DNA of 64,000 nt from assembly GCA_021777565.1 (NCBI GenBank), contig JAJYDJ010000002.1, forward strand, positions 69,082-133,081. Direction: 5' to 3'. The position numbers and the translations under genes are program-made. A model generated the notes under the pieces. It saw nothing but the letters and a program-made list of their open reading frames with translations. It was not told the origin of the DNA and did not search any database. Shown one piece after another: positions 1 to 55,104 of the stretch; the stretch's first letter is position 1, and each line of letters begins with the position of its first letter. Source of the DNA: a bacterium (GTDB taxonomy: Bacteria > Patescibacteriota > Microgenomatia > Levybacterales > UBA12049).

Positions 1-1079
1 CAAATCCAGCTCTTAATCCAATTAATATAGAAGGTAATGCCCAAAATAATAGCAATGTTGTCTCTGGGAGTAATACTGATATCCCAACCATCCTTACTGG
101 ACAACCAAATCATATATTTAATTACTATATTACGAATGCATATATTGGTCCCCTTGAAAACTTGCTTGGATTAACTCCTCTCACAGATTCTCCGTCAATA
201 ATTGGCTATAACTTACTAAATGGCCTCCTTCCAGGTGTTGGCACGCTTTTTGGGACACTTCAAGCAATTTCCCATGGATTGAGTCCTATTGAAGGACTTT
301 TTTATATGATTTCTGCAGATATGGCAGCTCCAGGAGCTACTTTTATGGGTGATCTTGCATCTCGAATAGAAGTAGGAGGTACTAACTTGTGGGCACCAGT
401 ACTTGGGGTAGGGGCGAGTACAGCAGCCTATGCGATTCTTGTCCCTATAATTATGGGGCTTATTAGCCTAAACATAGCAACCATCTTTCAGGTTATTCTT
501 ATCGTTTCTGTATTTATAGGTGTAATTATGCTTCTCATCATGCTCATTAAGGCTTTCATGTCTATCATTTTTTCTACTGTCCTTGCGCCTCTTGCTATTG
601 TTCTTGGTATTTTCCCTGGATCTGGAGAAGGATTTGGACATTGGGCTAAAGGTCTTATTGCAGACTTTCTACTCTTTCCAGCAGTACTTGGATTATTTCA
701 TCTTGGTTATGACATTGCAAGTGTGATCAATACGGATACCACAGGCTTCTTTACTCCGCTCTTCATTCCTTCTAGCCTTCTTAAGGCTACAACCGACCAT
801 GGCTATGGCCAACTAAACTTTGCTCATAGTGGGACAATTAATGGGCTTTCTTTAATTGTAATTTACTTTACAATTTTTGCTGCAGCTTCATTGAGAGATG
901 TTCTTAGGAAGAGTCTCGGAGTTGCTGATAATCCACTAGTTACTGCAGCCATGGGAATAGCTTTGGGTGGGAGTAAACAGGTACAAAGTCGTTTAGGTCT
1001 AAAAATGAGTAAAATACCGGAGCTTAAAAACACAGCTCAGTTCAAAAGTGCAATGCTAGGAAAGATTGGCGGCCCCTAA
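1..1079 (+). CDS. Polytopic membrane protein, VirB6/TrbL-like (T4SS inner-membrane channel component); 5' partial because the reading frame is open to the window edge
   Basis: Frame 3 has no stop from nt 3 to the listed ORF at 162. The protein has more than five hydrophobic helices. It sits immediately upstream of the pilin-like genes and VirB4. The family assignment rests on topology and context only. Confidence 0.4.
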   Translation, partial: NPALNPINIEGNAQNNSNVVSGSNTDIPTILTGQPNHIFNYYITNAYIGPLENLLGLTPLTDSPSIIGYNLLNGLLPGVGTLFGTLQAISHGLSPIEGLFYMISADMAAPGATFMGDLASRIEVGGTNLWAPVLGVGASTAAYAILVPIIMGLISLNIATIFQVILIVSVFIGVIMLLIMLIKAFMSIIFSTVLAPLAIVLGIFPGSGEGFGHWAKGLIADFLLFPAVLGLFHLGYDIASVINTDTTGFFTPLFIPSSLLKATTDHGYGQLNFAHSGTINGLSLIVIYFTIFAAASLRDVLRKSLGVADNPLVTAAMGIALGGSKQVQSRLGLKMSKIPELKNTAQFKSAMLGKIGGP

Positions 1080-1084
1080 CGATA

Positions 1085-2959
1085 ATGAAAAAATATATTT
1101 TTACATCGCTTTTATTTTTAGTATTGTCCTATCTTATATATCTCCCTGAGAACGCTTTTGCTCGCATAAATGCAATCTGTACTACAGATTTTGGGAAAGC
1201 TGATGACCATAGTCTTATGCTCGTAAATTCCTCTTTACCAACTCAAACCCAACCGACACCAACACCAGTTTGTTATTCTCCGCCGGTTTTGAATTACCCA
1301 ACATGCGCCCCAAGCCCAACCTCAATAGCAACTCAACCAACTATTACACCAGCTTCACCAACAACCATTGATCCCATTTTTTTCTCCTATGCAATTACGA
1401 ATCAACTTGATTTTGTTGACAGTCCCAAAAATAATTTATATATAACTAGTAACTATGTCGGACCACAATCACCGACAGGGACTCTCTCTGTACCAGTACC
1501 ATTTCAAAAATACAACGCAGATCTTGGGTTTTATTATAGTTTTATTCCAGGCACAATCCATTTCAGTGATGCCGGGGGAACAACAGGTGCTACAAATGGC
1601 GACTATCATGGGACAAGAACCGATGGGTCCCCATATAGTAGCCAGTGTGAATCGTCAGCTGACCCAGCAATTAACCAAATGTGTGTAAGTAGCACTGATA
1701 TTGACACTCCTGGAGTACACTATCAATCTCTCCCCGACAATCAAAATTCTGCTTGCTATAGCTATTGTGAATGTGGATATCAAATAGGAGATATCACTGT
1801 GACCACGCAAAATGTTGCAAGTGGGACACAGACATTAATTGATTATAGTAAATTACGATTTGCACCAACCGCAGGAGGAGAATTATCTGCCCCACAAATT
1901 AATGTCACCTATCAATCACAAAATTGTGATGTGGGATTTAAAAATTGTAAGCCCGATACCACAATTAGCCCTCAGGTAGTATCTATACCAGGAAAGGTTG
2001 GATACTTCTGTGGAATTGCACATAATACTTATTATGTACTGCAAAGTGCTATCCCACAAATATCATCATCTATTTCTAATACAACACAGTCCTTTGACTC
2101 CCTTTTCCCCGTGCCAGCGGGTAATCAAGTTGAAATAGGATCAACGAAAGAGTCATACTATGGCAGAGAGTTCGGACATGGAATTGACATCGAAAGTAAT
2201 CCTAGTGCAAGTGGTATAACCAATCTCCCCCAAGGGCTAACCAATTCGGATATCCCAACTGTGTGCATGAATCTTGACTATAAAAACAGTGGTCCAAATG
2301 CACAAAATGGAGGAGATCAAGGCATTATTAAATTTGTTCCTGTATTTGGAGCCAACGACTGCAAGCAAATTGGGGCATTAAATTCGTATAGCTGTTGGTT
2401 TGATGGATACGCTACGGTGAATACTTGCCCTCCGGGTACAAGTTATAATAGTAAGGCCAACTGGGGATGGCCATGTTCACAAAACAATAGTACTGATCCT
2501 AAATATCAAGCAGTAACTAGTCCAATACCAAATAGTTTACTTGTCAATCATACTGCTGCTGGTATTAAGTACAGTACCCCCCCTCTCATTTATCCCAGTG
2601 ATGCTATACCAAATATCAATTTATTGACCAATACCTCATTTACTAATATCGAAACAAAAGCTCAATCGTGTGATGCTACGGGCTGTGATACAGCAATAGG
2701 CAGAATCCCTACCGATCCAAAACTTTTTACTGGAAGTATCATGCAATATATTCTGGGATTTAGTGGTATAACTGCACTTATTCTTATTATTCTTGGCGGA
2801 TATGAGTTAATAACATCTCAAGGAGATGAAACAAAAGTGAAAGCAGCTCGAGAGAGAATAACATCTGCTATTATTGGACTTCTCTTTATAATTTTTTCAG
2901 CAACATTCTTACAAATTCTTGGCATAGACATCTTGAACTTGCCTGGATTAGGGAAATAA
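1085..2959 (+). CDS. Secreted Cys/Thr/Asn-rich extracellular protein (about 560 aa) fused to a C-terminal VirB2/TrbC-like pilin hairpin domain
   Basis: N-terminal signal peptide MKKYIFTSLLFLVLSYLIYLPENAFA. Many Cys residues sit in the exported part. The C-terminus ILGFSGITALILIILGGYELITSQGDETKVKAARERITSAIIGLLFIIFSATFL has the same two-helix W/L-I-T-S-Q-G-D-x-K motif as the three downstream small proteins. Confidence 0.5.
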   Translation: MKKYIFTSLLFLVLSYLIYLPENAFARINAICTTDFGKADDHSLMLVNSSLPTQTQPTPTPVCYSPPVLNYPTCAPSPTSIATQPTITPASPTTIDPIFFSYAITNQLDFVDSPKNNLYITSNYVGPQSPTGTLSVPVPFQKYNADLGFYYSFIPGTIHFSDAGGTTGATNGDYHGTRTDGSPYSSQCESSADPAINQMCVSSTDIDTPGVHYQSLPDNQNSACYSYCECGYQIGDITVTTQNVASGTQTLIDYSKLRFAPTAGGELSAPQINVTYQSQNCDVGFKNCKPDTTISPQVVSIPGKVGYFCGIAHNTYYVLQSAIPQISSSISNTTQSFDSLFPVPAGNQVEIGSTKESYYGREFGHGIDIESNPSASGITNLPQGLTNSDIPTVCMNLDYKNSGPNAQNGGDQGIIKFVPVFGANDCKQIGALNSYSCWFDGYATVNTCPPGTSYNSKANWGWPCSQNNSTDPKYQAVTSPIPNSLLVNHTAAGIKYSTPPLIYPSDAIPNINLLTNTSFTNIETKAQSCDATGCDTAIGRIPTDPKLFTGSIMQYILGFSGITALILIILGGYELITSQGDETKVKAARERITSAIIGLLFIIFSATFLQILGIDILNLPGLGK

Positions 2960-2960
2960 T

Positions 2961-3290
2961 ATGAACAATATTGCCTTATCAATTAACGGTGTTCAATATA
3001 ACCTCCCTGGACCAATTGAAAATCTCAACAATGCAGCAGGAAGCCTTGGTGTAAATATTATAAATACTACTATTAACCTTCTTTTCATAATTGCAGTTAT
3101 TATTGCCTTGTTTTATTTAGTTTCTGGGGGAGTTAAGTGGATAATCTCTGGGGGTGATCAAAAAAAAATAGAAGGAGCACGTAATACCATTACATATTCT
3201 GTAATTGGACTTGTACTTGTCTTCATTTCATTTATTATTATGAATTTCCTGTCTAATTTCTTTGGTATTCCTCTTCTTGGGAATTCATAG
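2961..3290 (+). CDS. T4SS pilin-like protein (VirB2/TrbC-like two-helix hairpin)
   Basis: The motif LFYLVSGGVKWIISGGDQKKIEGARNTITYSVIGLVLVFISFIIM is shared with the three neighbouring paralogues. The start codon is 2 nt after the upstream stop. Confidence 0.5.
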   Translation: MNNIALSINGVQYNLPGPIENLNNAAGSLGVNIINTTINLLFIIAVIIALFYLVSGGVKWIISGGDQKKIEGARNTITYSVIGLVLVFISFIIMNFLSNFFGIPLLGNS

Positions 3291-3528
3291 ATCTGCCAAT
3301 GTGCTCAGTATAGGACAAACGGATTAAGTAAAAAATAAATTCTGAAAGAGATGGAAATGCATCTTCTCTGGAGACCATGACATGATATAAACTTTTTCAC
3401 CAGATCAGACAACAAAACAAAGATTGGGTTCATAGAATATACTCATTTTCACAATTAACTACGGCTGATACTACCAACCAGCTTGCCTATTGACAAAATG
3501 TAAAAACTTACCTAGGCTTAATATAGTT

Positions 3529-3933
3529 ATGAAAAAAATAATCGTCTTTGCGAGTAGTCTCGGAGCAGTACTGTCTTTGGCAACCCCAGCATTTGCTACA
3601 GGTGGACTTGGAAGCATTTGCCCTCAAGGTGCATTTGGTAACCTTTGTGGTAATTCACAAAATGCCTTTGGTAGTACTATTAGTTCATTTTTGACTCTTA
3701 TTTTTGTTGTTTCCGCTATCATTGCATTGGTCTTCTTGGTTTTGGGTGGTATCCGTTGGATTACCTCACAAGGAGATGCAAAAAATGTCGGTTCAGCAAG
3801 AGATCAAATTATCAATTCTTTAATTGGTTTAGGAGTTGTATTTATCTCATACATTTTGATTAACGTTATTCTCTACTTCTTTACTGGCGGAAGTCTTAGT
3901 CAAGTCAATATACCAACATTTAACGCTCAATAA
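3529..3933 (+). CDS. T4SS pilin-like protein with a cleavable signal peptide
   Basis: The internal start MKKIIVFASSLGAVLSLATPAFA is signal-peptide-like. The motif LVLGGIRWITSQGDAKNVGSARDQIINSLIGLGVVFISYIL follows. The ORF-track start at 3490 is probably an N-terminal over-extension. Confidence 0.5.
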   Translation: MKKIIVFASSLGAVLSLATPAFATGGLGSICPQGAFGNLCGNSQNAFGSTISSFLTLIFVVSAIIALVFLVLGGIRWITSQGDAKNVGSARDQIINSLIGLGVVFISYILINVILYFFTGGSLSQVNIPTFNAQ

Positions 3934-3939
3934 TCCTCT

Positions 3940-4281
3940 ATGTTTAACTGGGGAACATGCATGCAAGACCCAATCACAGGTGCTACTAATCTGGGTTACT
4001 TGACGTTTAACTGCCTTCCAAATTTTTTTCAAGGGGTCATCCAGACAGCACTCTCATTCGTAGGGATCACTTGTGCTATTTTTATTATTATTGCGGGATT
4101 TAAACTCGTATCCTCACAAGGTGATGCAAAAAAAATTGCAGAAGGGAGAAACACTCTCACATTCGCACTTATTGGACTTGTAGTGGTTATCCTTTCCTTC
4201 ACTATTATTCACTTCTTCTCATACGTTACTGGTTTAGGATGTTTGATGAATCTTAACTTTGGAACTGGTTGTACACAATAG
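3940..4281 (+). CDS. T4SS pilin-like protein
   Basis: The motif IIAGFKLVSSQGDAKKIAEGRNTLTFALIGLVVVILSFTIIH is a paralogue of the three upstream pilin-like domains. Confidence 0.5.
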   Translation: MFNWGTCMQDPITGATNLGYLTFNCLPNFFQGVIQTALSFVGITCAIFIIIAGFKLVSSQGDAKKIAEGRNTLTFALIGLVVVILSFTIIHFFSYVTGLGCLMNLNFGTGCTQ

Positions 4282-4323
4282 GTCTTCTTGCACCAGTTAA
4301 CTCGTCCATAGTAGAGTATATAT

Positions 4324-5688
4324 ATGGACCAAGATATGCGCCATCCCATCCCTCAGGACATTACTGGATTTAAATTTAGATTAGTTGGAGATATTACGCT
4401 GAAACAATTTACTTATCTCGCCATCGGCGGAGGTGCAGCGTGGTTTATCTATTCCCTCCCAGTCTGGGGCGTAGTGAAATATCCAATAGTCGGCATATTT
4501 ACTATTGGAGCTCTCATTCTTACCTTCCTGCCGATCCAAGGCCGTCCTGCAGACGCCATGATTATGTTGTTTTTTAAAACTGTTTTTCGCAATAATCAAT
4601 ATACTAAGCGTCCTAAGAGACCAGCACCTGCTATGACACCAAATCAACCTACCAGTACACCACCAACGCCGGCACCTGCTGCTGCCGAAGCTCAAACACC
4701 ACCCGATATGCTGGCTATACCAGTAATTGATGAATCAGCACTGCACAATGAAGCTGCGTCACAACCGACCTTTCCTGAGCAACCTACCACACCATCTAAG
4801 ACAACCCCTCAGATCGCACCTGAATCACCTATTACGACAGAGCAAACACCTGAAACTCCATCAACAAAGATAGCCATACCTTCACAGCCAGCCATGCCAG
4901 AGACACCTGTTACAACAAGCATGACAGAGCAACCATCAACAGAAGCGCCAACAGCTCCAACCCAACCTGAGACAACGGCCGAAGAGATGACTCAGCCGTC
5001 AGAGATACCTCAATCAGCACCAACAGGTACTCCTACCCCATCGTTTGAAGTGACAGAGATTCATGCACGGCCTCATGATGATAAAGAAGATCTTCTCAAG
5101 CGTATTCAGGAGCTTGAGGCACAACTAAAGGCTCAAGCACAAGAACAACAACCTACTGTGCAAGAGGCAGCGATGCAAGAAACTACTACACAAACAGCTC
5201 CTGAAACGACAGTGCAAGCACTTGATCAACTTCAAACACAGCCTGTTCAGGCACTTGTTGATGCTACGCGAGTAGAGACATCGGAACCTATGAACCCCAC
5301 ACCCGTGGCTGAGCCTGTTACGACACAACCGACGGTTCTAACACCAACACCAACGACGCCTGCGTTGCAATCTAGTGATGTACCAAATATGGTGATTGGC
5401 CAGATTATTGACCCACGTGGATTGCCACTTGCAAATATCTTAGTTGAGATCGTTGATACACAGAAAAACCCGGTGAGAGCTTTTAAGTCAGCACAGAATG
5501 GTCAATTTGCCACAGCGACCCCACTGACAGCAGGCTCTTATCTGCTGATGTGTGAAGATCCCGAAGGAAAGCAGAAATTTCAACCAATGCCTCTTTTGGT
5601 TAATGATACTATCCTCTCCCCTCTCACTATTCAGTCTACCGATGAGCGCGAAGAATTACGAAAAGCACTCTTTACACCCAGTGTATGA
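4324..5688 (+). CDS. PrgI/VirB3-like membrane protein with a roughly 230-aa Pro/Thr/Glu-rich linker and a C-terminal transthyretin/carboxypeptidase-regulatory-like beta-sandwich domain
   Basis: The N-terminus FKFRLVGDITLKQFTYLAIGGGAAWFIYSLP followed by two TM helices resembles the PrgI family and lies directly upstream of VirB4. A low-complexity PT-rich tract follows. The C-terminal VIGQIIDPRGLPLANILVEIVDT...GSYLLMCEDPEGKQ has a CarbopepD_reg-like pattern. Confidence 0.5.
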   Translation: MDQDMRHPIPQDITGFKFRLVGDITLKQFTYLAIGGGAAWFIYSLPVWGVVKYPIVGIFTIGALILTFLPIQGRPADAMIMLFFKTVFRNNQYTKRPKRPAPAMTPNQPTSTPPTPAPAAAEAQTPPDMLAIPVIDESALHNEAASQPTFPEQPTTPSKTTPQIAPESPITTEQTPETPSTKIAIPSQPAMPETPVTTSMTEQPSTEAPTAPTQPETTAEEMTQPSEIPQSAPTGTPTPSFEVTEIHARPHDDKEDLLKRIQELEAQLKAQAQEQQPTVQEAAMQETTTQTAPETTVQALDQLQTQPVQALVDATRVETSEPMNPTPVAEPVTTQPTVLTPTPTTPALQSSDVPNMVIGQIIDPRGLPLANILVEIVDTQKNPVRAFKSAQNGQFATATPLTAGSYLLMCEDPEGKQKFQPMPLLVNDTILSPLTIQSTDEREELRKALFTPSV

Positions 5689-6245
5689 GCCAAATTGTTT
5701 CAACACAAGATTTTACAGAGATAGCGGACATCCAAGGTGATATTGTTGTTATGACCAATGGTGGTGCCTGTATTATTGTGGAAATTTTCTCCACCAACTT
5801 CGCCCTTCTCTCTCAAGATGAACAGATGAGTAAAATCGTTGGCTTTAGTTCTTTTCTTAACTCCATCACGTTCCCGTTACAAATTCTGGTCATCAATAAG
5901 CGTGTTGATATTAGTAACTACATCGCAGTGCTAAAAAGCGAAGAAACACACGCACAAAACCCCGAGGCCAATGCGTACATCAGTGCCTATACCAACTTTG
6001 TACAAAATTTAGTGAAAGATAATATCGTCCTAGATAAACGTTTTTTTGCAGTGATTTCTTATTCTCCGCTTGAATCGGGTGTTATTGGACTTGTCGATCC
6101 AAAAGATATTGTTGAAAAAGCAAAGGCAAGTCTGCAATCCAAAGCACAGTCGGTGCAGAGCCTTCTTACTCGAATGAATTTTCAGTCAAAAATCCTAGCT
6201 GATGATGCATTGAAAGGAGTGTATCTATCACTTTACATACAATAA
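5685..6245 (+). CDS. VirB4 N-terminal domain fragment (split VirB4, part 1)
   Basis: MSQIVSTQDFTEIADIQGDIVVMTNGGACIIVEI...LSQDEQ resembles the start of VirB4/TrbE/CagE. The ORF stops 1 nt before the next ATG. Confidence 0.5.
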   Translation: MSQIVSTQDFTEIADIQGDIVVMTNGGACIIVEIFSTNFALLSQDEQMSKIVGFSSFLNSITFPLQILVINKRVDISNYIAVLKSEETHAQNPEANAYISAYTNFVQNLVKDNIVLDKRFFAVISYSPLESGVIGLVDPKDIVEKAKASLQSKAQSVQSLLTRMNFQSKILADDALKGVYLSLYIQ

Positions 6246-6246
6246 T

Positions 6247-8028
6247 ATGGCAAGCATAGCACCAAAGAAATATACCAAAGAGGAAGTAGTAATCAAAAGA
6301 GTCAATGCTGAGTTGCAAGATAGCATTGCGCCACAGACTATTGAGACAGATTTCTCATACGTAAAAGTAAACGATAAATTCTATCGAACTTTTTTCGTAA
6401 ACGGTTACCCTCGTTATGTCTCAACAAACTGGCTCCAGCCTTTGATTGATTTTAACCACGAGTTAAATATTAGTTTTTTCATTTATCCCTCAGAGTCAGC
6501 TGAAGTGCTTGATAACATCCAGAGAAAGATTGCAGAACTGGAAGCGACACTCTCTTCCAACGCTGATACAGGGAAACCGGTTGATCCTAAAATTACTGCG
6601 ACACTAGAAGACGCGCTTAATATTCAAGAAGAGCTTGCAAAAGGAATAGAAAAATTCTTTCATCTTGGTTTGTATATGACTCTCGTTGGATCAACGCTTG
6701 CTGAGCTCAATACAACTTCAAAACAGTTAACCACAACCCTTGGCTCACTCCTTCTGGCGACACAGCCTGCAACACTACAGATGGAAGATGGCTTTAAAAC
6801 AACTCTTCCTTATGGACTAGATCGCGTACAACAAACAAGAAATATGGATACGACATCTCTGTCGTCCATGTTCCCTTTCTCAAGTGCCACTCTGACGCAA
6901 AATAAGGGGGTTCTATACGGTATTAATGAACAGAACGCCTCACTAGTCGTCTTTGATAGATTCTCCATGGAAAACGCCAATGAAATCGTTTTCGGGAAGT
7001 CTGGTTCTGGGAAGTCTTACCTTATTAAATTAGAAATTTTAAGAACCTTCATGTTTGGGACAGAAGTGATTGTCATCGATCCTGAAAATGAATATGAGCT
7101 GGTGGCCAAGGCGCTGGGAGGAGAATATGTTGCATTCTCTGCTGAGTCTGCTGTGCGCATTAATCCATTTGATCTTTCTGGGATGCATGATGATAGTACC
7201 AATGAACTTGGAGAAAAAATATTATCACTCCACGCTTTACTAAAGATAGCTATGGGAGAGATCTCACCAGTTATGGATGCCATTTTAGATCGTGCTCTTA
7301 TCCAGACCTACGAACAAAAAGGCATTACGCAGGACCCAACAACTCAAAGTAAAACACCACCTATCATGCAGGATTTGTATGACACACTCAATACAATGAA
7401 AGAGACAGAAGCAAAAGAGCTCGCACTGAGACTAGAGAGATTCATTCGTGGGAGTCTTGCTGGATTTTTCAATCAACAATCTAATTTCAATATCACCAAT
7501 CCTCTTACGGTCTTTTCAATTCGTGATGTAGAAGATGAACTCAGACCACTCGTTATGCATATAATCCTTGACTTTATTTGGACTAAAGTTCGAAAAACCC
7601 TCAAAAAGCGTCTTTTGATCGTTGATGAAGCCTGGCTTCTGATGCGCTACGAAGATAGTGCATCTTTTATCTTTGGTATTGCAAAACGAGGACGTAAATA
7701 CTATCTCGGCTTGACTACGGCTACCCAAGATGTGGCTGACTTTTTGAGTACGCAATATGGGAAAGCTATTCTTTCCAACGCTTCTATTCAGATTCTTCTC
7801 AAACAGAGTACAACTGAAATTGATGAAGTTGCCAATATTTTTTATCTTTCACAAAACGAGAGACAATTACTCATGTCAGCTGAGGTTGGAGAAGGACTTT
7901 TCTTTGCTGGGCAGAATCATGTCGCAATACGTGTCGTTGCAGCAAGCTTTGAACATCAAATTATTACCTCAAAACCAGAAGACGTATTGAAAGCAAAAGC
8001 GCTGCTTACTACACCCGAACAGGCATAA
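6247..8028 (+). CDS. virB4: Type IV secretion ATPase VirB4 (TrbE/CagE family), C-terminal two-thirds
   Basis: Walker A GKSGSGKS, IDPENEY, Walker B LLIVDEAW and RKYYLGLTTATQDVAD are characteristic VirB4 motifs. Confidence 0.8.
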   Translation: MASIAPKKYTKEEVVIKRVNAELQDSIAPQTIETDFSYVKVNDKFYRTFFVNGYPRYVSTNWLQPLIDFNHELNISFFIYPSESAEVLDNIQRKIAELEATLSSNADTGKPVDPKITATLEDALNIQEELAKGIEKFFHLGLYMTLVGSTLAELNTTSKQLTTTLGSLLLATQPATLQMEDGFKTTLPYGLDRVQQTRNMDTTSLSSMFPFSSATLTQNKGVLYGINEQNASLVVFDRFSMENANEIVFGKSGSGKSYLIKLEILRTFMFGTEVIVIDPENEYELVAKALGGEYVAFSAESAVRINPFDLSGMHDDSTNELGEKILSLHALLKIAMGEISPVMDAILDRALIQTYEQKGITQDPTTQSKTPPIMQDLYDTLNTMKETEAKELALRLERFIRGSLAGFFNQQSNFNITNPLTVFSIRDVEDELRPLVMHIILDFIWTKVRKTLKKRLLIVDEAWLLMRYEDSASFIFGIAKRGRKYYLGLTTATQDVADFLSTQYGKAILSNASIQILLKQSTTEIDEVANIFYLSQNERQLLMSAEVGEGLFFAGQNHVAIRVVAASFEHQIITSKPEDVLKAKALLTTPEQA

Positions 8029-9109
8029 TAAGATGAAGGAATGATTCATCGTTGGTATTTTTCAACACGGCAGGACTTAACGGTGCGGTCATCTCAAATA
8101 CAACCTCGTCAGTCGAAATTGCATTTACCCCATCTAGTAAAAATCGTGGATTAAACGCTATCGCATTCTCCTCACCCTTGAGTGTCCCTTCAATAGTCAC
8201 CGTACTCTCCCCTACTGATGCTGTCTGGGCAAACATGCGCATCTGGTCTTTATGTAACTCACAGACCAAAACACTGGTGCTGTCCCGTGCAACCACAGAA
8301 CAAATCTTAACAGCTCGAAGCAAATCATCTTTTTTCACGATTATTTTGCTCGAGGCTTCATGGGGAATAATTTTACTATAGCTTGGGAACTCTCCCTCGA
8401 TTTTTCTTCCCGCGATACGTACTCCGTCCTGAACAGCCACAATTTGATTTACCTGGTCTGATAAATAGAATTGAATTGGCATATCTTCTCGCAGTGCCCC
8501 AAGTTCTTTTAAGAATCGCGATGAGAACACAATCCCTTTCTGCTCTTCTCCAGCCTCTTCACGTGGGATACTTACTAAAGAAAGTCTAAATCCATCAGTT
8601 GCGACAAAACGGATTTCATTTTCTTTCCTTTCACACAAAACCCCTGACCAGATCGGCTTAGTTACCTCACTACTGGTAGCAAACAACGTATATTTTGTGA
8701 TTTTCTCCATGTCTTTTGGTTGAAGGGTCAAAAATGCTACTTTAGTTTCCTCAAAAATATCAGGGAATTCATCGGCGGGCTGAACTTGTAATTTACTACT
8801 AATGCTCTCCCCTACTATCTGAATTGTGTTTTGTGCAGATGTTTTAAGGGTAATCTTTCCTTCAGGTACTTGTGATAATAGTTCGAGAAATGTTTTTGCT
8901 GGAACCGCTACTTCCCCTTCTTCATCTACTACACACTGAAACGTTGTTTCTATACTGAGTTCCAAATCTGTTGCAGTAAGAGTAACACTGTCTCCTTTGG
9001 CACGTACAAGAATTGACGACAATATAGGAAGTTGAGTGCGTGTCGAGATACTATGTGCAGTAAGCGCTAAATGTTTTTGTAAAATTCCAGATAAAACAGT
9101 GAACACCAT
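8009..9109 (-). CDS. dnaN: DNA polymerase III beta sliding clamp
   Basis: The length and sequence (LHLIMPVRV at the C-terminus, three-domain clamp pattern) fit DnaN. It lies downstream of dnaA. It overlaps the virB4 3' end by 20 nt in convergent orientation. Confidence 0.9.
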   Translation of the reverse strand: MVFTVLSGILQKHLALTAHSISTRTQLPILSSILVRAKGDSVTLTATDLELSIETTFQCVVDEEGEVAVPAKTFLELLSQVPEGKITLKTSAQNTIQIVGESISSKLQVQPADEFPDIFEETKVAFLTLQPKDMEKITKYTLFATSSEVTKPIWSGVLCERKENEIRFVATDGFRLSLVSIPREEAGEEQKGIVFSSRFLKELGALREDMPIQFYLSDQVNQIVAVQDGVRIAGRKIEGEFPSYSKIIPHEASSKIIVKKDDLLRAVKICSVVARDSTSVLVCELHKDQMRMFAQTASVGESTVTIEGTLKGEENAIAFNPRFLLDGVNAISTDEVVFEMTAPLSPAVLKNTNDESFLHLIMPVRV

Positions 9110-9239
9110 AGATTTATTCTAGTAGTTGTAGTAGTGTACCGGGAAAAGTGGAAAAACGCAAGGGATCGAGGCTAAAATAATGTGGATAACCGTGTGTACA
9201 ACTTTGGGGATGAAATGGGGACAACCCACCTCCTTCTAG
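9110..9239. promoter_or_regulatory. dnaA-dnaN intergenic region with DnaA boxes (candidate oriC or DnaA-box region)
   Basis: A perfect TGTGGATAA (reverse of TTATCCACA) sits at about 9181-9189, and a 7/9 box at about 9147-9155. Two further TTATCCCC boxes lie just inside the dnaA 3' end (about 9240-9247 and 9260-9267). Confidence 0.4.
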
Positions 9240-10622
9240 TTATCCCCTGAGATTTCGAGTTATCCCCATGATCTCCTCATTGAGTTCTGCACTGTTTTTC
9301 AACAGGTTTTCCACCTTTTCGATTCCATGCATAATGGTTGTGTGATCTCGTCCCCCAAGTAAATTCCCAATTTCAACCAGTGTTGTACCTAATTCTTGTT
9401 TAAGAAGAAACATTGTCACTTGTCGTGCCTTGACCAAGGCTGCATCTCGCTTGGGGCCTTTGAGCTGGGTAGGTTTGACATCATAGTACTCACAGGTGCT
9501 TTTAATAATATCGTCTGAGTGCAGGCGGAAACCAATTGGTTTGGCGTCTTTTAATATATTTGAAGCTAGTATTTTCTCTGCAGAGACCTGTCGTGTCTGA
9601 GCCTCAGTCATTACTCGAAGCAACGCTCCCTCAAGGCTTCTCACGTCCTGTTCTTTCTCTGCAATTGCCTTGGCTATCTCAATATCTATGTCATAGCCAA
9701 ACTTCTCTGCCTTTTTCATGATGATTGCGGTACGCATGGCAAAATCTGGTTCTTGAATATCAATGGTTAGCCCCCCAGCAAATCGTGAAGAGAGTCTTGC
9801 TTCAAGTTTTTTAATCTCCTGTGGTGGTTTATCTGAAGTCAGAACAATCTGTCCACCAGCATCGATAATAGCGTTAAAGGTGTGAAAGAGCTCTTCCTGC
9901 ACTTTCTCCTTACCCGAGATGAACTGAATATCATCAATAATGAGCAGATTGGCACTTCTAAAATATCGTTTCATAGCACTCGTATTATTGTTTCGAATGG
10001 CGTCAACAACACGGTTAATAAAATCTTCACTGGTGCAATAAATAATGGTGAGTGAACTGTCTTTTTGGTATGCCTGATTGGCAATGGCGTGCATGATATG
10101 CGTCTTCCCTACTCCGGTTGGACCATACACAAAAAGAGGGTTGTATGATCGCCCTAAGTTATTGGCCACGGTTTGAGCAGAGACATAGGCAAGTTGGTTG
10201 CTGTCTGAGACCGCTAAGTTTTCAAAGGTGAAATCTTTTCGTACGCGTGGAATATGTCCCATACTTGGCATGACTTCCTTTTTCTCAGTGAAGTCAAATT
10301 GGTCTTGCGGGAGTTTCTCTTTTACTTGTTTTTTAACCGTTTTCGTAGCGAACTCAAGTGTTGTAACTGGGGTAGGAGTGTATTTACTCATGGTCTCTTT
10401 CAGAAGGCTTGAAAACTTCTTATCTAAAAAGTCAGCAACGACTGTGGATAACGTCGCAATTTTTACTGTTGAGTCTTGAATTTCTATAACTTCTGATGTT
10501 TTAAAAAATGAAGTAAAATTACCCATGGAAACCTCAGTTTTTATATCCTGGAGCGTTTTCTCCCAAATTTCTTCCGTAGTCATCGTAGACTCAATTAAAG
10601 AATGTGGATAACTTCTTGTCAA
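9240..10622 (-). CDS. dnaA: Chromosomal replication initiator DnaA
   Basis: AAA+ Walker A GPTGVGKTH and box VII are present, together with the C-terminal DNA-binding signature KARQVTMFLLKQELGTTLVEIGNLLGGRDHTTIMH. It starts with TTG, and a perfect DnaA box (10603-10611) overlaps the start region. Confidence 0.95.
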   Translation of the reverse strand: MTRSYPHSLIESTMTTEEIWEKTLQDIKTEVSMGNFTSFFKTSEVIEIQDSTVKIATLSTVVADFLDKKFSSLLKETMSKYTPTPVTTLEFATKTVKKQVKEKLPQDQFDFTEKKEVMPSMGHIPRVRKDFTFENLAVSDSNQLAYVSAQTVANNLGRSYNPLFVYGPTGVGKTHIMHAIANQAYQKDSSLTIIYCTSEDFINRVVDAIRNNNTSAMKRYFRSANLLIIDDIQFISGKEKVQEELFHTFNAIIDAGGQIVLTSDKPPQEIKKLEARLSSRFAGGLTIDIQEPDFAMRTAIIMKKAEKFGYDIDIEIAKAIAEKEQDVRSLEGALLRVMTEAQTRQVSAEKILASNILKDAKPIGFRLHSDDIIKSTCEYYDVKPTQLKGPKRDAALVKARQVTMFLLKQELGTTLVEIGNLLGGRDHTTIMHGIEKVENLLKNSAELNEEIMGITRNLRG

Positions 10623-10669
10623 TAGATCACATAGACACAGGACAAAAGTTTTGGTACAATTACCCTGTT

Positions 10670-10804
10670 ATGGAAAGACTTCGTACCACAAAAGGAACCA
10701 AAAAAGCGCGCAAGCATGGATTCCTTGCTCGTCGCAAAACGGCAAATGGACGCACTGTCATTGCTCGTCGCCGCGCAAAAAATCGCAAAAGAATAGCTCA
10801 GTAA
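10670..10804 (+). CDS. rpmH: 50S ribosomal protein L34
   Basis: MERLRTTKGTKKARKHGFLARRKTANGRTVIARRRAKNRKRIAQ is a canonical L34. The ORF track extends it upstream from a GTG at 10604. Confidence 0.9.
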   Translation: MERLRTTKGTKKARKHGFLARRKTANGRTVIARRRAKNRKRIAQ

Positions 10805-11124
10805 TGTTTGCAAAACCTTTTCGCCTCACTCTTGGCAGACAAAAAATTCTTGGTCAGAGATTCACGTCCCCTACTCTTTCTCTTGTCGTTTCAGATAATG
10901 GTCTCGAGCATAATAGGTATGCCTGTCTTGTGACTAAAAAAGTAGACAAGAGAGCAGTCATTCGTAATCGAATCAGAAGGCTTGTTATTTCAGAACTCCA
11001 GGCGAAACATCTCCAAATTCACCCCAGACATGATCTTTTTTTTATGGCAAAAGTAACACAACAAGATGAAAAACAAATCCAAAGTGATGTCTCATCTCTT
11101 CTTGAACAAGCTCATCTGTTATGA
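10804..11124 (+). CDS. rnpA: RNase P protein component
   Basis: MFAKPFRLTLGRQ...VTKKVDKRAVIRNRIRRL is the RnpA pattern. Its ATG overlaps the rpmH stop (TAATG), the classical rpmH-rnpA arrangement. Confidence 0.85.
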   Translation: MFAKPFRLTLGRQKILGQRFTSPTLSLVVSDNGLEHNRYACLVTKKVDKRAVIRNRIRRLVISELQAKHLQIHPRHDLFFMAKVTQQDEKQIQSDVSSLLEQAHLL

Positions 11125-42893: not shown

Positions 42894-45005
42894 CTACTGT
42901 ATTTGGAAGATCTGTGTATCTTGATTGGAGTAGATGAGTGTTCCCATTTGATAGAATTTGTCTTCATTCAGATTGGTGTATTTCTTTCTTTCCAGCCCGC
43001 CAATATATATGAGGGTGACATTGTATTTTTGCATAAGAGATTTGGCAGTTGCTATATCGGTTGTCTCATAGATCGTCTGGATGTCCTGCATGCGTGGTGG
43101 GAGAGGGTTATAGCTTCCGCGCCATAACCACTCATGTACTGTCCATCCAAGTACGGTGGGCAACCCCGTATTGGCTGAAATGCGTGCATAGTTTGTATAT
43201 GAGTCACCTTGTGCCTCCAGGATAACTGGTTGTCCAGTAATGTTGTGATTTAGCCATATTACTGCTGCATAGTCTTGTGGATAGTCGTTGGCAAGATAGG
43301 TAAGTCCATACAGCCCACTGGGAGGTGTTGAAAAATTATAATATCCAGGAATTGCAAGATATGGATAAATAAGTGCAGGGGTAATAAGAATAAGGGAGGC
43401 TAAAAGAAAAGGAAGGACATAGATTCTCTTGAGTGACTTTGCAATACGAGCTATCGTATATGCGCTTGCCATACCAAAAAGCATGAAGGACTGATAGGTG
43501 AGTTTAAACATCGTGTTTGCACGGTAGTGCTCAGGGTAAATGTCTTTCATATAGAGGAATTCTGGAATGAGGACTAAAATAAAACCAACTGCAAAAAGAC
43601 AAATCACGAAGATATCAATTGGATTTTGTTGTTTTTTCTGTCTCTTCATAAAGAAAAGAAAACTGATAAACAGAATGAAAGGAATTCCCCAAAGAATAAA
43701 GAGCTGATACAGAGGGGACCTCTGGCAGTGGTTTGGCTCAAAAAGAAACGGCCCAAGGTGCCCAATATTTGTGAGGAAGGTAGGTGCACATAAGACGCCA
43801 ATGCCTGAGACAAGCTCACTCGCATTGAAAAATGCAGAAAAAGGGCGGGAGAGGATGAAAAATGTGAGTAAAGGAACACCCAAATGGATTGCCATACTCT
43901 TCCAATCATCTTTAATAAATACCAGAAGTAGGACAATCCAGAATCCAAAATAAATGAGACTATCCCATGCGTTGGTCATGTACATAATAGACAGTAAAAA
44001 GCCTAAAAATACGAGAAAATAAACATGCTGGCGTTGCAATTTTTGATTTATATAGTCTTTGACATAGATAAAGGCAAGGCCAACAAAAAGAAGTACATTT
44101 GGAATATCTAAAACATGCCCATGCAGGTCAGAAACAATAAATGAATAGATAGGGAATTCATGGATAGTATGATAAATAAAGCGTGTTGCATTTGGATACC
44201 AATAGCTATTTGGAAATGTGAATGGACTAAATACTAATTGCCACAGTGGGACTGGGTTCTCATTCGGATAGGCCACGAAAAACGCATAGAGACTGTGTAA
44301 GTTTCCTCCACAGGCGACAAGAAATCCCCCAATGAGTCCGGCAATAGTACTTGCTATCGCAAGCGAACGGGCCATGGTCTTGCCACTGAGAACAAGTCGT
44401 GTGAGATTCGTGACCAGAGAAAATGAGAGAGTAAACGTGAATGAGAAAAGAGTCGCGAGCATGAGGTTATAGGTGATGGCACTATCTAAAAATGATAGTT
44501 TTGTGATTACAGCAGTAGTGAGGTGTCCGAAATAGTAGTAATTGATTGGCAACGGTGCATACCACATGTCTTTAGGGGGAAAGTATGTCGTTCTAAGAAT
44601 GGTATTTAAGAATCCAAAGTCCATATATTTTTCTAGCCCAAAAATGTCTGGCTGGAAGCTCCTTACCTGTGCCCAAACACAAAGAAGTGCAAAAAAGAGG
44701 ATTTCCTCTCCAAGAAAAACGCGGATGTCTTTTGATGTAATACGTTTATCCCAATATAGGAGATTGATTGCAAGAAGAAAGCCCATCACGCCTATAATAG
44801 TGTAATGAGTAAACGGGAGTAGATGAAAAATTCCAAGAATAAAGACAAGAAAACTTGTTGTGGTGAGCGAAAAAACCTTTGCAAAAAGGTACCCTTTGTC
44901 AAAAAAAGAGGCAAAGACACGTGTTGTAATGGGGATGAAAATGATCCCACTGATAAAAAGCCAAAACCACCAGATAATAAGTGATTGAAAGTCAATCTGT
45001 GTCAT
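42894..45005 (-). CDS. DUF2298 / Chlor_Arch_YYY-family polytopic membrane protein (putative GT-C-like glycosyltransferase)
   Basis: There are about 20 TM helices. The conserved stretch PLPINYYYFGHL carries the eponymous YYY motif. Confidence 0.55.
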   Translation of the reverse strand: MTQIDFQSLIIWWFWLFISGIIFIPITTRVFASFFDKGYLFAKVFSLTTTSFLVFILGIFHLLPFTHYTIIGVMGFLLAINLLYWDKRITSKDIRVFLGEEILFFALLCVWAQVRSFQPDIFGLEKYMDFGFLNTILRTTYFPPKDMWYAPLPINYYYFGHLTTAVITKLSFLDSAITYNLMLATLFSFTFTLSFSLVTNLTRLVLSGKTMARSLAIASTIAGLIGGFLVACGGNLHSLYAFFVAYPNENPVPLWQLVFSPFTFPNSYWYPNATRFIYHTIHEFPIYSFIVSDLHGHVLDIPNVLLFVGLAFIYVKDYINQKLQRQHVYFLVFLGFLLSIMYMTNAWDSLIYFGFWIVLLLVFIKDDWKSMAIHLGVPLLTFFILSRPFSAFFNASELVSGIGVLCAPTFLTNIGHLGPFLFEPNHCQRSPLYQLFILWGIPFILFISFLFFMKRQKKQQNPIDIFVICLFAVGFILVLIPEFLYMKDIYPEHYRANTMFKLTYQSFMLFGMASAYTIARIAKSLKRIYVLPFLLASLILITPALIYPYLAIPGYYNFSTPPSGLYGLTYLANDYPQDYAAVIWLNHNITGQPVILEAQGDSYTNYARISANTGLPTVLGWTVHEWLWRGSYNPLPPRMQDIQTIYETTDIATAKSLMQKYNVTLIYIGGLERKKYTNLNEDKFYQMGTLIYSNQDTQIFQIQ

Positions 45006-45019
45006 AGTGATAGTATATC

Positions 45020-45565
45020 TTATCTCTTATTTGCTATATCTTGAATATCTGTTGTTGCAAAGAGATTAGGGAGTATTTTTTTATTCTCAGTATGGTTGTA
45101 CCAGAAAAAGAGCGTCTGCGGATTTTTGTGTGCCAGATAGGTTACTAGGGCAAGATCATCATCAATATACCGTTCAATTTTTTTCTTTTTTATCATCATG
45201 TCTTTAAAAAAGTGTGGTTGCTCGTTTTCGAAGTTAAAGAAAAGTTCGGTGAACACATCAGTGAGCCCATACTTTTTTGCAAGGGCATGTGTTTGACGTT
45301 TTAAAAATCCGAACCTGCTTGAGATGAGATAAAGCTCATGCTTATTCTCATTGTGCAGTTTTTGAAGAAAGGACAGGTTTCTTTTAATTGGAAGTCGAAG
45401 GAAAGGAAGGTGTAATAGTTGTCTACCTTTTTGCTCAATCTTACCTGGAATGCGATACCTGAGTGTTGTATGATCTTTCTCTTTATAAAATGTGTCAAAC
45501 ACCCATTCGGGAACTACAGGTGGATAGTGAATAATGACGTTATCCAGGTCAAATCCGAGTCTCAT
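45020..45565 (-). CDS. HAD-superfamily hydrolase (5'(3')-deoxyribonucleotidase-like)
   Basis: Motif I FDLDNV lies at the N-terminus, and a late Lys / DDD motif is present. The start was chosen at MRLGFDLDN to abut the upstream stop. Confidence 0.5.
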   Translation of the reverse strand: MRLGFDLDNVIIHYPPVVPEWVFDTFYKEKDHTTLRYRIPGKIEQKGRQLLHLPFLRLPIKRNLSFLQKLHNENKHELYLISSRFGFLKRQTHALAKKYGLTDVFTELFFNFENEQPHFFKDMMIKKKKIERYIDDDLALVTYLAHKNPQTLFFWYNHTENKKILPNLFATTDIQDIANKR

Positions 45566-46605
45566 GGTAACAATCTCTCGATCACATCGAGGATTCCGAA
45601 GTTCCATCCAACTCGATGGGTCATACCTTTCCTGTTTTTGATTTCCTCACGATGTTTGGCATACCAGTCGTATGACTCAATGAGCAAGTCTTTATCAGAT
45701 TTTTGTGCTTTCCAGCCAAGTAGCTTTTCGGCTTTTTCTGTTGAAACGTAAGAATCTACCGGTAAGGTTCTGTAGTGCCATTCTGCAATAGGAGAGAGGT
45801 TCAGTTTATCAAAGAGCGCCAATATAATCTGAGATGGCTTAACAGGGAGACCAAGTATTCTTGATTTTGATTTCGCAAATTTGATTGTGGCACCAAGGTC
45901 TTCATTCCATGTCCCAAAGTTCTTTGCACCAATATTAAATGTCTCTCCATGAACTTTTGCTGTCAGTGCTTTAAGGATTGCATCTGCAATGTCTCCAACC
46001 CAGAGAAGCTGGTATTTATTATTCCCATCGCCTAAAATGACCACTGGTTTCCCTGTATAGATGGCGTCAAACCAGATTTGAAACACACCAAGTCTCTCCA
46101 CTCCCAGAAATGTCTTTGGGCGAATGATATTACATTGCAGCCCTTCTTTTTCGTATGCACGACAAAGGTTCTCTCCTGCGATTTTAGATTCACCATAATA
46201 CCCAATTGGATCAAGTGGAGCTTCTTCAGTTTCTGGCCATACTTTTGGTACGCCATAGACGGCAGTAGAAGAGATATAAACAAGGCGCTTTATCTTTTGT
46301 TTTTTTGCTGCAAGCAATACTTTCTCAGTCCCATAAATGTTGGTGCTGAATATTTTTTCTTTGGTTCTTTGAATTGGGAGGGCTGCTGCCGCATGGACAA
46401 CATAATCAATCCCTTTCAGTGCTTTTGTGATGCTTTCTTGATCTCTTACGTCTGCTTGGACGACAGTCACTTTGTCTTTGAGATCTTCTGCGGTGAGAGG
46501 GGCTATATCATACAACGTGACATCATATCCTTGTTTGAGGGCCAGACGAGCAACGTGGCAGCCCAGGAAGCCGGTGCCGCCAGTAATCAGAAGTTTCTTC
46601 ATCAT
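45562..46605 (-). CDS. NAD-dependent nucleotide-sugar epimerase/dehydratase (extended SDR)
   Basis: LLITGGTGFLGCHVARLA and YxxxK are present. Confidence 0.85.
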   Translation of the reverse strand: MMKKLLITGGTGFLGCHVARLALKQGYDVTLYDIAPLTAEDLKDKVTVVQADVRDQESITKALKGIDYVVHAAAALPIQRTKEKIFSTNIYGTEKVLLAAKKQKIKRLVYISSTAVYGVPKVWPETEEAPLDPIGYYGESKIAGENLCRAYEKEGLQCNIIRPKTFLGVERLGVFQIWFDAIYTGKPVVILGDGNNKYQLLWVGDIADAILKALTAKVHGETFNIGAKNFGTWNEDLGATIKFAKSKSRILGLPVKPSQIILALFDKLNLSPIAEWHYRTLPVDSYVSTEKAEKLLGWKAQKSDKDLLIESYDWYAKHREEIKNRKGMTHRVGWNFGILDVIERLLP

Positions 46606-46607
46606 AC

Positions 46608-48161: not shown

Positions 48162-48162
48162 A

Positions 48163-49866: not shown

Positions 49867-49871
49867 ACAAA

Positions 49872-54149: not shown

Positions 54150-54493
54150 TATTTTGTCCCTCCTGGCGTTGGTGTTGCGGATGAAGTTGACAGTGGTGTT
54201 GGCGTAGCAGAAACACTTGCAATAAAAACAAGTACGGGGGTTGGGGTTGGCACTGCTGTGGGTGCCGCGGCAGTAGTTGGCGCTACGAGTATTTGTATTG
54301 GTGTTACTGCGAGCCTGCTAGAAAGCGTATTCATGGTTTTGGTATCAAAAGTTCCGTTGATTGGGATAACTTGTTCATTGACTGTTTCACTAATAGTTGA
54401 TGTAGTAAGGCGTTGCATAATACTGAAAATAATCCATGCTATAACTAGTATAACGGTCGCTGCAAGGACAAAGATAAGATCATTTCGTTTCAT
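54149..54493 (-). CDS. Small bitopic membrane protein with a Pro/Thr/Ala-rich tail
   Basis: It has an N-terminal TM helix and lies downstream of the pilO-like gene. Confidence 0.35.
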   Translation of the reverse strand: MKRNDLIFVLAATVILVIAWIIFSIMQRLTTSTISETVNEQVIPINGTFDTKTMNTLSSRLAVTPIQILVAPTTAAAPTAVPTPTPVLVFIASVSATPTPLSTSSATPTPGGTK

Positions 54494-55104
54494 AAACTTT
54501 TTTGTGCGTACGCTCTTCCTTTTATTGTAGCGCGAAAATTCCCTTTTGGTTGTGAGGAGAAAGAAAGGCTATCGATAGTGATCACTCGAGAGAGGTTAGT
54601 CATGTCTTTCATAAAAAGAATAGTACTTGGATAGGTCCCTTCCACGTTCATGCTAAATACAAATGAGAGTGGCTTATCATTCTGAGATTGAGAGAATTCA
54701 ACTGGGAAGATTTGTAGATACGTGAGAGAGATATTATCTCTTTTTGCCAGCCCTTGTAATAGTCCGGCAACACCTAACGTATCAGGGGAGTCAGGGATTG
54801 CCTGAAGAGCGAGAGGGAGACTAGTTTGGATAGTTGGATAGGCTTTTTGGAGGGAAAAAATGGATGCGATCTTGGTATCAAGTTGCTGGCTCACTGTTTG
54901 CTCATCACTTAATTGTTTTTGCAGTTCAGCAATAGTAGATAGGGTTGGGTTAATTGCAAAAAGTCCGAAGCCAGCACATGCCACGAGGGTAAAGGCGAGT
55001 GTAGTAAATTTACCGACTCTTTCTTCACCAAATTTTGGAATAATTCTCCCAACCAGCGCACCGGCTGGGATCCTATTAAATACAGATGACGTATTTGTGC
55101 TCAT
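54490..55104 (-). CDS. PilO-like type IV pilus assembly protein
   Basis: It has an N-terminal TM helix, then a coiled coil (ELQKQLSDEQTVSQQLDTK), then a C-terminal domain. The size and topology fit PilO. Confidence 0.45.
   Translation of the reverse strand: MSTNTSSVFNRIPAGALVGRIIPKFGEERVGKFTTLAFTLVACAGFGLFAINPTLSTIAELQKQLSDEQTVSQQLDTKIASIFSLQKAYPTIQTSLPLALQAIPDSPDTLGVAGLLQGLAKRDNISLTYLQIFPVEFSQSQNDKPLSFVFSMNVEGTYPSTILFMKDMTNLSRVITIDSLSFSSQPKGNFRATIKGRAYAQKSL

Follow-up and report, generated by a model that had tools for sequence, protein, structure and literature searches.

What is a chromosomal type IV secretion system (T4SS) for, when it lies against the replication genes dnaN and dnaA and has no gene for DNA processing near it? 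This question is raised by positions 1–8028 of a 64,000-nucleotide stretch of Microgenomatia DNA (contig JAJYDJ010000002.1, positions 69,082 to 133,081 of the forward strand), which is referred to as the window. A preliminary description of the window, made from its letters and its open reading frames (ORFs), had recognised a T4SS-like cluster adjoining dnaN/dnaA and had placed it in a candidate phyla radiation (CPR) bacterium. This reading was right but is not new: ultra-small Patescibacteria typically have such a relaxase-free cluster at their replication origin, and papers of 2023 and 2025 had already described it, along with the pilin arrays and the dnaA/dnaN position. With a VirB4 of the mating-pair formation (MPF) type FATA, a TrsD-like protein, a pilin array, a PrgI-like protein, no relaxase nearby and a site at dnaN/dnaA, the locus is almost certainly a member of the known Patescibacteria-clade T4SS. 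The points reported below that go slightly beyond the cited papers are refinements and do not amount to a new kind of system.

Gene content and organisation of the cluster

The ORF table shows eight collinear plus-strand genes, g1 to g8, within positions 1–8028 (Table 1). Collinearity and strand had been described correctly, the number had not: seven genes had been counted, with the TrsD-like g7 overlooked. The packing is operon-like, with an intergenic spacing of −4 to 42 nt and the sole exception of 238 nt before g4. A 182-aa ORF with two predicted transmembrane (TM) helices, located upstream of the window and overlapping the start of g1, probably belongs to the operon; counting it, the cluster has nine genes in all.

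Table 1. Genes of the T4SS cluster and its immediate neighbours. Positions refer to the window unless the source contig is given.
Feature	Position	Strand	Evidence and remarks
g1, divergent VirB6-like platform subunit; C-terminal 358 aa of the 584-aa polytopic membrane protein P0001	<3..1079	+	Frame open to window edge; family-level and fold evidence
g2, 624-aa first pilin with ectodomain	1085..2959	+	PF18895 at residues 550–611, 28.1 bits
g3, 109-aa VirB2-type pilin	2961..3290	+	PF18895, 43.0 bits
g4, 134-aa VirB2-type pilin	3529..3933	+	PF18895, 38.1 bits; 134 aa according to the source-contig gene call
g5, 113-aa VirB2-type pilin (106 aa from second ATG)	3940..4281	+	PF18895, 29.9 bits
g6, 454-aa PrgI/VirB3-like protein	4324..5688	+	PF12666, 23.1 bits (cut-off 27); PF13620, 24.9 bits (cut-off 32.3); both below cut-off; family and model evidence
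g7, 186-aa soluble TrsD-like protein, corresponding to the VirB4 N-terminal domain as a gene of its own	5685..6245	+	NF041427, NF045975
g8, 593-aa VirB4 ATPase, monoderm MPF-FATA CD1110 type	6247..8028	+	NF045971, 385.4 bits
dnaN, convergent with g8	8009..9109	-	ORF; DNA_pol3_beta domains
dnaA	9240..10622 (gene call ends at 10583)	-	ORF, gene call
182-aa two-TM ORF, probably part of the operon	L081 (source contig) 9456-10004	+	Weak DUF5673 match; overlaps g1 start
143-aa protein, candidate regulator	L081 (source contig) 8598-9029	-	HTH_23, HTH_29, HTH_33; upstream of the 182-aa ORF

A VirB4 ATPase encoded by two genes

The motor protein g8 matches the NCBIfam model of the CD1110-family VirB4 (NF045971) over model positions 180–733, above its curated cut-off (385.4 bits; cut-off 325), and PF19044 at 102 bits. 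Both Walker motifs are intact, A as GKSGSGKS at position 250 and B as LLIVDE at position 456. The best-scoring VirB4 models in NCBIfam are those of CD1110 and of the VirB4 of Mycoplasma integrative and conjugative elements (ICEs), and the closest solved structure is VirB4 from the Firmicute Thermoanaerobacter (4AG5; E 1e-42), while TrwK of the MPF-T type is matched only at E 3e-5 and 26 bits. The proposed assignment to VirB4 rather than to FtsK/HerA was thereby borne out: no FtsK or HerA chain occurred among the PDB matches of g8 at E<=1e-3, and the only HerA-related match was the generic DUF87 (37 bits vs 385). The models of the archaeal import proteins CedB and CedD gave 58 bits (cut-off 700) and 27 bits (cut-off 600).

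Compared with the full-length VirB4 model, g8 is without the first ~180 positions. The preceding g7 matches TrsD/TraD (NF041427; E 8.7e-6, well under the curated cut-off of the family) and positions 109–230 of the VirB4_plasma model NF045975 (E 3.4e-6), and the precomputed annotation lists a TraC-like match (PF26593). It is 44% identical to its orthologue in one of the closest relatives (L001); a PDB search returned spurious ubiquitin matches only. Taken together, g7 and g8 thus constitute a single VirB4, split as in pGO1-type systems.

For synteny, the 80 genomic relatives nearest to g8 were collected, all of them metagenome-assembled genomes (MAGs) with 45–72% identity, and counts were made over the 70 loci with enough flank. 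A TrsD-like gene lies immediately upstream of virB4 in 67/70. We had also considered g8 as a truncated pseudogene; this was rejected because g7 covers what is absent and these 67 loci have kept the split.

Four pilins with fixed places in the array

All four proteins encoded by g2 to g5 exceed the gathering cut-off of the T4SS_pilin family (PF18895; 26.6 bits; scores in Table 1), in line with the four pilin paralogues recognised earlier, and TM prediction gives each the two-helix hydrophobic hairpin expected for a VirB2-type pilin. In g3 the helices span residues 28–64 and 74–107, with no obvious signal peptide. A canonical Sec signal peptide, MKKIIVFASSLGAVLSLATPAFA, is present in g4, the only pilin of the array to carry a canonical one. 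For g5, the Mbov_0395 pilin-like conjugal transfer protein (NF045849) scores 38.8 bits, slightly under its cut-off of 40.

Pairwise identity among the paralogues of the window array is 24–36%, to be compared with a mean of 25% inside published Patescibacteria arrays (PMC12102498). The four-gene array is kept in ~18 genomes and in a constant order: a long fusion of 136–642 aa, a pilin of ~110 aa, a third of ~135–155 aa that has a signal peptide, and a last one of ~100–118 aa. When the pilins of these arrays were compared with those of the window, 57 out of 72 found their best match in the paralogue that holds the corresponding place in the array, with ~18 expected by chance; g3, for instance, is orthologous by position to the second array gene of the relatives. 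Such positional orthology, together with the low identity between paralogues, argues for old, specialised subunits and not for recent duplicates. Orthology of the four pilins by array position, as seen in these comparisons, goes beyond the accounts cited here.

The first pilin, g2, is unusual in its architecture. A signal peptide is followed by an ectodomain of ~520 aa rich in Cys, Pro, Thr and Ser, and the pilin hairpin is C-terminal (two TM helices, 550–620). The ectodomain has no Pfam domain, and a single distant homologue was found among 5.8 billion proteins. In BLASTP it matched none of 15 orthologous ectodomains, against 15/15 for the pilin domain of the same protein; the ectodomain evolves far faster than the pilin domain. 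In a VirB2-type fibre the N-terminus points outward, as is established from pilus structures, and the ectodomain would therefore be displayed on the surface. It is thus plausible that g2 is a minor or tip subunit, acting as an adhesin that recognises the host.

A pilin-ectodomain fusion is mentioned in none of the three descriptions of the Patescibacteria T4SS cited here (PMC12102498, PMC10633639, PMC12857230). We propose, only tentatively and as a possibility that may well prove wrong, that in this Levybacteria-like lineage the pilins are fixed, specialised subunits and not exchangeable variants, and that the first is a new VirB2-adhesin fusion, whose hypervariable ectodomain, as long as 640 aa, would set the host specificity. 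If so, g2-type fusions would stand in for the VirB5 and PrgB-type adhesins, neither of which is known from Patescibacteria, and VirB2, VirB3, VirB4 and VirB6 without a wall hydrolase would be the minimal set of genes from which such a fibre can be built. The fusion is a testable candidate for host recognition, in a phylum without a reported T4SS adhesin.

The 238-nt gap at 3291–3528, ahead of g4, is the only sizeable one of the cluster. Close 5' of the g4 start codon it holds TTGACA-17-TAGGCT, which could be an internal promoter for a major pilin; the consensus scan left it unreported because only three of six positions match in the −10 element. Scans of positions 1–11000 for promoters (20 sites vs 26.7 in shuffled controls) and terminators (5 sites vs 8.1) yielded no usable operon boundaries.

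The PrgI-like and VirB6-like membrane proteins

The assignment of g6 as PrgI/VirB3-like is supported at the family level: PF12666 is found in 47 of 50 homologues, most of which also match PF13620, and the gene is directly upstream of the TrsD-like g7 and VirB4. In the AlphaFold2 model, helices 18–44 and 49–68 form a confident membrane hairpin (18–68) and residues 355–440 a beta-sandwich (pLDDT, the predicted local distance difference test, ~95). The two are connected by a disordered linker of ~250 aa rich in Pro, Thr, Gln and Glu. Family, model and gene order agree with the PrgI-like call made from the letters. With Foldseek, the sandwich was matched to the transthyretin-like domain of carboxypeptidase D and to CnaB2 domains (E 1.5e-5). 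This conserved extension of a PrgI-like protein, linker and beta-sandwich, goes beyond the cited accounts.

An N-terminal motif, H-P-I-P-Q-x-x-T-G-F-x-F-x-L-x-G, is strictly conserved in the g6 family, and the C-terminal sandwich is likewise conserved, with many invariant residues. Having two TM helices, g6 would hold its sandwich in the cytoplasm, though the CnaB/transthyretin-like fold is typical of extracellular proteins.

The assignment of g1 was less direct. Neither the partial nor the full-length protein had a Pfam or NCBIfam match, and a word-indexed homologue search returned only the protein itself. An exhaustive HMMER search, on the other hand, recovered a sizeable family of 2,726 representative clusters (E<=1e-3), and PF04610 (TrbL/VirB6) was matched by 8 out of 40 aligned members (best E 7.6e-6). 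No PDB sequence was matched by the family profile; the best fold match of the g1 model (pLDDT 65.6) was VirB6, the platform of the R388/Agrobacterium type. In nine loci, VirB6-like genes of this family lie upstream of virB4 at a distance of no more than 10 kb. The VirB6-like call thus stands on family-level and fold evidence, on which it is likely, and finds no direct match in Pfam or NCBIfam. A divergent, probable VirB6 of Microgenomatia that can be recognised by its fold is a further point beyond the cited accounts.

Absence of DNA-processing genes

Upstream of the window edge are the first 227 aa of g1, the 182-aa ORF and then unrelated genes. The cluster had been said to continue past this edge; it does so by the rest of g1 and that single ORF, with nothing further related. 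The 143-aa protein on the opposite strand could be a regulator, and its set HTH_23/HTH_29/HTH_33 also occurs in the N-terminal part of IS630-type transposases. An amino-acid permease comes next, and then other genes with no relation to the cluster.

The absence scan covered, with Pfam, the large non-overlapping ORFs of 12–64 kb (~180 aa or more) and, further, the called genes of 10 kb upstream of the window. Neither set contained a domain of a relaxase, a VirD4/TraG coupling protein (TcpA) or VirB11, nor did the ORFs of the cluster itself. Their absence from the window had been noted before and was confirmed; the expectation that VirD4, VirB11, a relaxase or a muramidase might be found just upstream was not, none occurring in the 10 kb. 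Within the 74 kb covered, there is no DNA-processing gene. The large ORFs at 12–64 kb are of the housekeeping and envelope kind (PGK, LeuRS, RuvABC, DnaG, a sigma factor, UvrD, MurJ, LepA, GroEL, glycosyltransferases and PilN/PilO-like proteins).

Conservation of the locus beside dnaN and dnaA

The g8 relatives with informative names are MAGs of Levybacteria, Microgenomates, Shapirobacteria, Daviesbacteria and Paceibacteria, and hence Patescibacteria, as expected from the CPR origin suggested at the outset; many others have generic or wrong titles. Several loci (L001, L002, L008, L010, L013 and others) are titled, for example, 'uncultured Gammaproteobacteria' or 'Pseudomonadales', while their content and nearest named relatives are those of Patescibacteria; such public MAG titles appear to be mislabelled taxonomy.

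The 3' ends of g8 and dnaN share 20 nt. In the relatives, a PrgI-like gene lies within 4 kb of virB4 in 55/70 loci, and dnaN is convergent downstream of virB4 in 52/70. In nine of the latter the two genes abut directly as they do in the window, while most other convergent loci have 2.7–5.5 kb in between. With dnaN in 52 and TrsD in 67 of the 70 loci, the arrangement is not due to chance. In the closest relatives, the virB4-dnaN interval (L001 11767-17839, L002 11761-14321) encodes a large membrane protein, a Big_5 immunoglobulin (Ig)-like protein and others; the membrane protein follows virB4 and is of 606 aa with a weak CHAP match in L002 (E 2.3e-4) and of 1,096 aa with no Pfam match in L001. 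Upstream of the pilin array, relatives have an ATPase and an OmpR-type winged-helix regulator (L001 3724-5121). None of these extra L001/L002 genes, the regulator pair included, has a homologue in the window, and tblastn with the CHAP-type and Big_5 genes gave no match there at E<=1e-3.

Base composition is even across the 64-kb window, and the cluster does not deviate from it. Conserved synteny on the origin side and uniform composition indicate that the locus is old, chromosomal and vertically inherited, and not a mobile element. An origin as an ICE or plasmid remnant was considered and was ruled out by the composition and by the dnaN/dnaA position kept across many species.

Beyond dnaA follow rpmH, rnpA, yidD and yidC, all on the plus strand. 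The GC skew changes its sign near 10–12 kb of the window, as expected for a replication origin. The T4SS operon is on the strand of negative GC skew and directed at the origin, so that its transcription runs head-on to replication. This orientation, with virB4 and dnaN convergent in 52/70 relatives, sits poorly with the published idea that proximity to the origin mainly serves high expression.

Other features of the window

Three further regions on the minus strand relate to the cell envelope. The genes at 52779–55652 encode in series a PilO-like protein (PF04350, E 2.5e-7), a weakly PilN-like one and a Big_13 Ig-like one, which has the look of an incomplete cluster for type IV pilus assembly; the Pfam scan detected no PilB, PilT or PilC near it in the window. 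At 42894–51464, PMT_2-type membrane glycosyltransferases occur as three paralogues in tandem (517, 567 and 530 aa), beside a DUF2298 membrane protein and an NAD-dependent epimerase, in what looks like an envelope glycosylation cluster. A 290-aa protein at 59430–60302 carries a C-terminal LPXTG anchor motif (PF00746, E 3.9e-4, barely above cut-off), consistent with a monoderm, sortase-using envelope. A tRNA scan and an Rfam scan at the gathering threshold over the whole 64 kb found none.

Proposed function and alternatives

The gene content suggests a role other than classical conjugation, as the preliminary description had it, and this agrees with the published view (PMC10633639, PMC12102498). 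The machinery is of consequence beyond this genome: the Patescibacteria T4SS is among the few machines known to be essential to the epibiotic lifestyle of a huge and mostly uncultured bacterial diversity.

A working mechanism can be drawn from the gene set. The Patescibacteria T4SS descends from monoderm conjugation machinery of the MPF-FATA type, and the locus would encode the cytoplasmic-membrane core and the fibre alone. Here, g1 would be the assembly platform, the hairpin of g6 may tether the VirB4 ATPase to the membrane, and g2–g5 would form the fibre. By analogy with R388 and Agrobacterium, the pilins would enter the membrane as helical hairpins, from which VirB4 (g7 and g8), as the sole ATPase, would pull them out at the VirB6 platform and polymerise them into a pilus or tube crossing the wall and touching the host cell. 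Outside the fibre, g2 would show its large and fast-evolving ectodomain for host recognition, as a probable minor or tip subunit, and the fibre would serve contact and exchange with the host bacterium, not conjugative DNA export. We infer the assembly of a pilus, the adhesin role of g2 and the interaction with a host on these grounds, and hold a pilus or contact conduit of this kind to be somewhat more probable than its negation.

A number of points weigh against it. For this organism the mechanism is read from the genes, and a pilus of this type is not known from the biochemistry of any Patescibacterium. As single sequences, g1 and g6 stay under the curated cut-offs, and the g1 model is of only moderate confidence. 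Searches with the pilin profile found no solved VirB2 or TraA by sequence, and an ectodomain of 520 aa would be difficult to accommodate in a helical fibre, except on a subunit present in few copies. Pfam and NCBIfam gave no match in the cluster to a VirB8-like protein or to a VirB1-like cell-wall hydrolase; the machine may lack these components here, or they may be encoded at other sites of the ~953-kb genome.

The gene set could instead serve import. VirB2, VirB3, VirB4 and VirB6, with neither VirD4 nor VirB11 nor a relaxase, make up a gene content that we presume to be like that of ComB, and a machine working like ComB or Ced might draw DNA, RNA or other macromolecules of the host into a nucleotide-auxotrophic epibiont. 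Uptake through a pilus conduit has been speculated upon (PMC12857230), and VirB4 has been tied to macromolecule transfer in an RNA-feeding parasite (10.64898/2026.06.21.733656). Against this, nothing in the sequence points to a direction of transport, and g8 is far from CedB by score (58 bits vs 700). Moreover, in 'Ca. Southlakia epibionticum' deletion of comEC abolishes competence and leaves the cells viable, whereas the T4SS cannot be dispensed with (PMC12857230, citing Wang 2023); the essential role of the T4SS is accordingly not ComEC-linked transformation. On balance we consider import unlikely.

A further alternative is the export of protein effectors, with toxins or host-manipulating proteins delivered into the bacterial host and the pilins as mere channel or attachment. 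Protein export by the system was put forward as a possibility by Wang et al. (PMC10633639), and T4SSs that secrete proteins without a coupling protein exist, such as Ptl and Brucella VirB (PMC12102498, PMC12857230). For effector export most systems, however, need the coupling protein that is missing here, and Pfam and NCBIfam scans recognised nothing in the cluster or beside it as a candidate effector, chaperone or immunity gene, which leaves this alternative unlikely as well. That the cluster belongs to a conjugative or mobilising T4SS with its relaxase, coupling protein and oriT elsewhere in the genome would suit the membership of g8 in a conjugative VirB4 family (NF045971) and the finding that many genomes of Patescibacteria have VirD4 homologues at a distance from virB4 (PMC12102498), but is very improbable given the lack of a relaxase or coupling gene within 74 kb, a locus fixed beside dnaN/dnaA across class-level divergence and of the same composition as the rest of the window, hence not part of a mobile element, the presence of relaxases in only 103 of 3,035 genomes, and a distant t4cp homologue that is non-essential in Southlakia where other T4SS genes are essential (PMC12102498).

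Comparison with known systems

With the ComB system of H. pylori and the archaeal Ced system, the cluster shares a derivation from T4SSs, the absence of a relaxase or coupling protein and, possibly, an inward direction of work. ComB has homologues of VirB7–10 and operates in a diderm; from Ced the cluster differs by the scores of the CedB and CedD models, far under their cut-offs.

The VirB systems of R388 and Agrobacterium (MPF-T; 7O3V, 8RT9, 8RTD) have the same roles filled, with VirB3 and VirB4 at the membrane, a VirB2 hairpin and a VirB6 platform, for which g1 is the likely counterpart by its best fold match. In contrast to them, the window is without the VirB7/9/10 outer-membrane core, the VirB5 tip, VirB11 and VirD4. 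Its VirB4 is distant (26 bits to TrwK), and its pilins have no detectable sequence similarity to the solved ones.

Nearer are the MPF-FATA systems (TrsD-TrsE of pGO1/pSK41, CD1110 of C. difficile CTn2, PrgI/PrgJ of pCF10 and the Mycoplasma ICE), which provide the VirB4 models nearest to g8. The likeness extends to a separate TrsD-like protein as in pGO1, a VirB3 analogue of the PrgI family and pilin-like matches to Mbov_0395 of the Mycoplasma ICE. Unlike in these systems, no relaxase, VirD4/TcpA, VirB8-like protein (PrgL/TraM), VirB1-like hydrolase or PrgB-type adhesin was found with the cluster, which lies on neither a plasmid nor an ICE. The cluster also has VirB2-type pilins, which are generally absent from Gram-positive conjugative systems (PMC12102498, PMC12857230).

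The closest agreement is with the Patescibacteria-clade T4SS itself. In 3,035 genomes, Quinonero-Coronel et al. (2025) described the VirB4 proteins of Patescibacteria as one monophyletic clade that falls inside MPF-FATA, with TrsD as the most abundant VirB4-associated component, homologues of PrgI/VirB3 and VirB6, 441 VirB2 arrays of 2–11 genes, particularly in Microgenomatia and Saccharimonadia, relaxases in just 103 genomes, and dnaN, dnaA, rnpA and rpmH enriched beside virB4 in Microgenomatia and Paceibacteria (PMC12102498). The 2025 review regards the Patescibacteria systems as a new T4SS subgroup and a possible pilus conduit (PMC12857230), and a 2026 preprint describes tubular structures linking a Patescibacteria-type parasite and its host (10.64898/2026.06.21.733656). 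The window has in common with this clade the MPF-FATA VirB4 with TrsD beside it, PrgI/VirB3 and a divergent PF18895 pilin array, no relaxase or coupling protein nearby, and a chromosomal position beside dnaN, dnaA, rnpA and rpmH. It differs in that VirB6 was found to be scarce in Microgenomatia (PMC12102498), whereas the window encodes the divergent g1, a likely VirB6-like protein recognisable via its family and fold only.

In Ca. Southlakia epibionticum ML1, the T4SS (SEML1_0006-0019) is essential for epibiotic growth by transposon sequencing and comprises a series of pilins without recognisable coupling or relaxase proteins (PMC10633639). Its array has six pilins, against four in the window. 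Homologues of a peptidase and a lysozyme follow its virB4, whereas the virB4 of the window runs straight into dnaN, with no such gene within 74 kb. With nine genes, virB4 set against dnaN and no hydrolase, the window is a clean and compact Microgenomatia example of the system and a possible minimal reference set.

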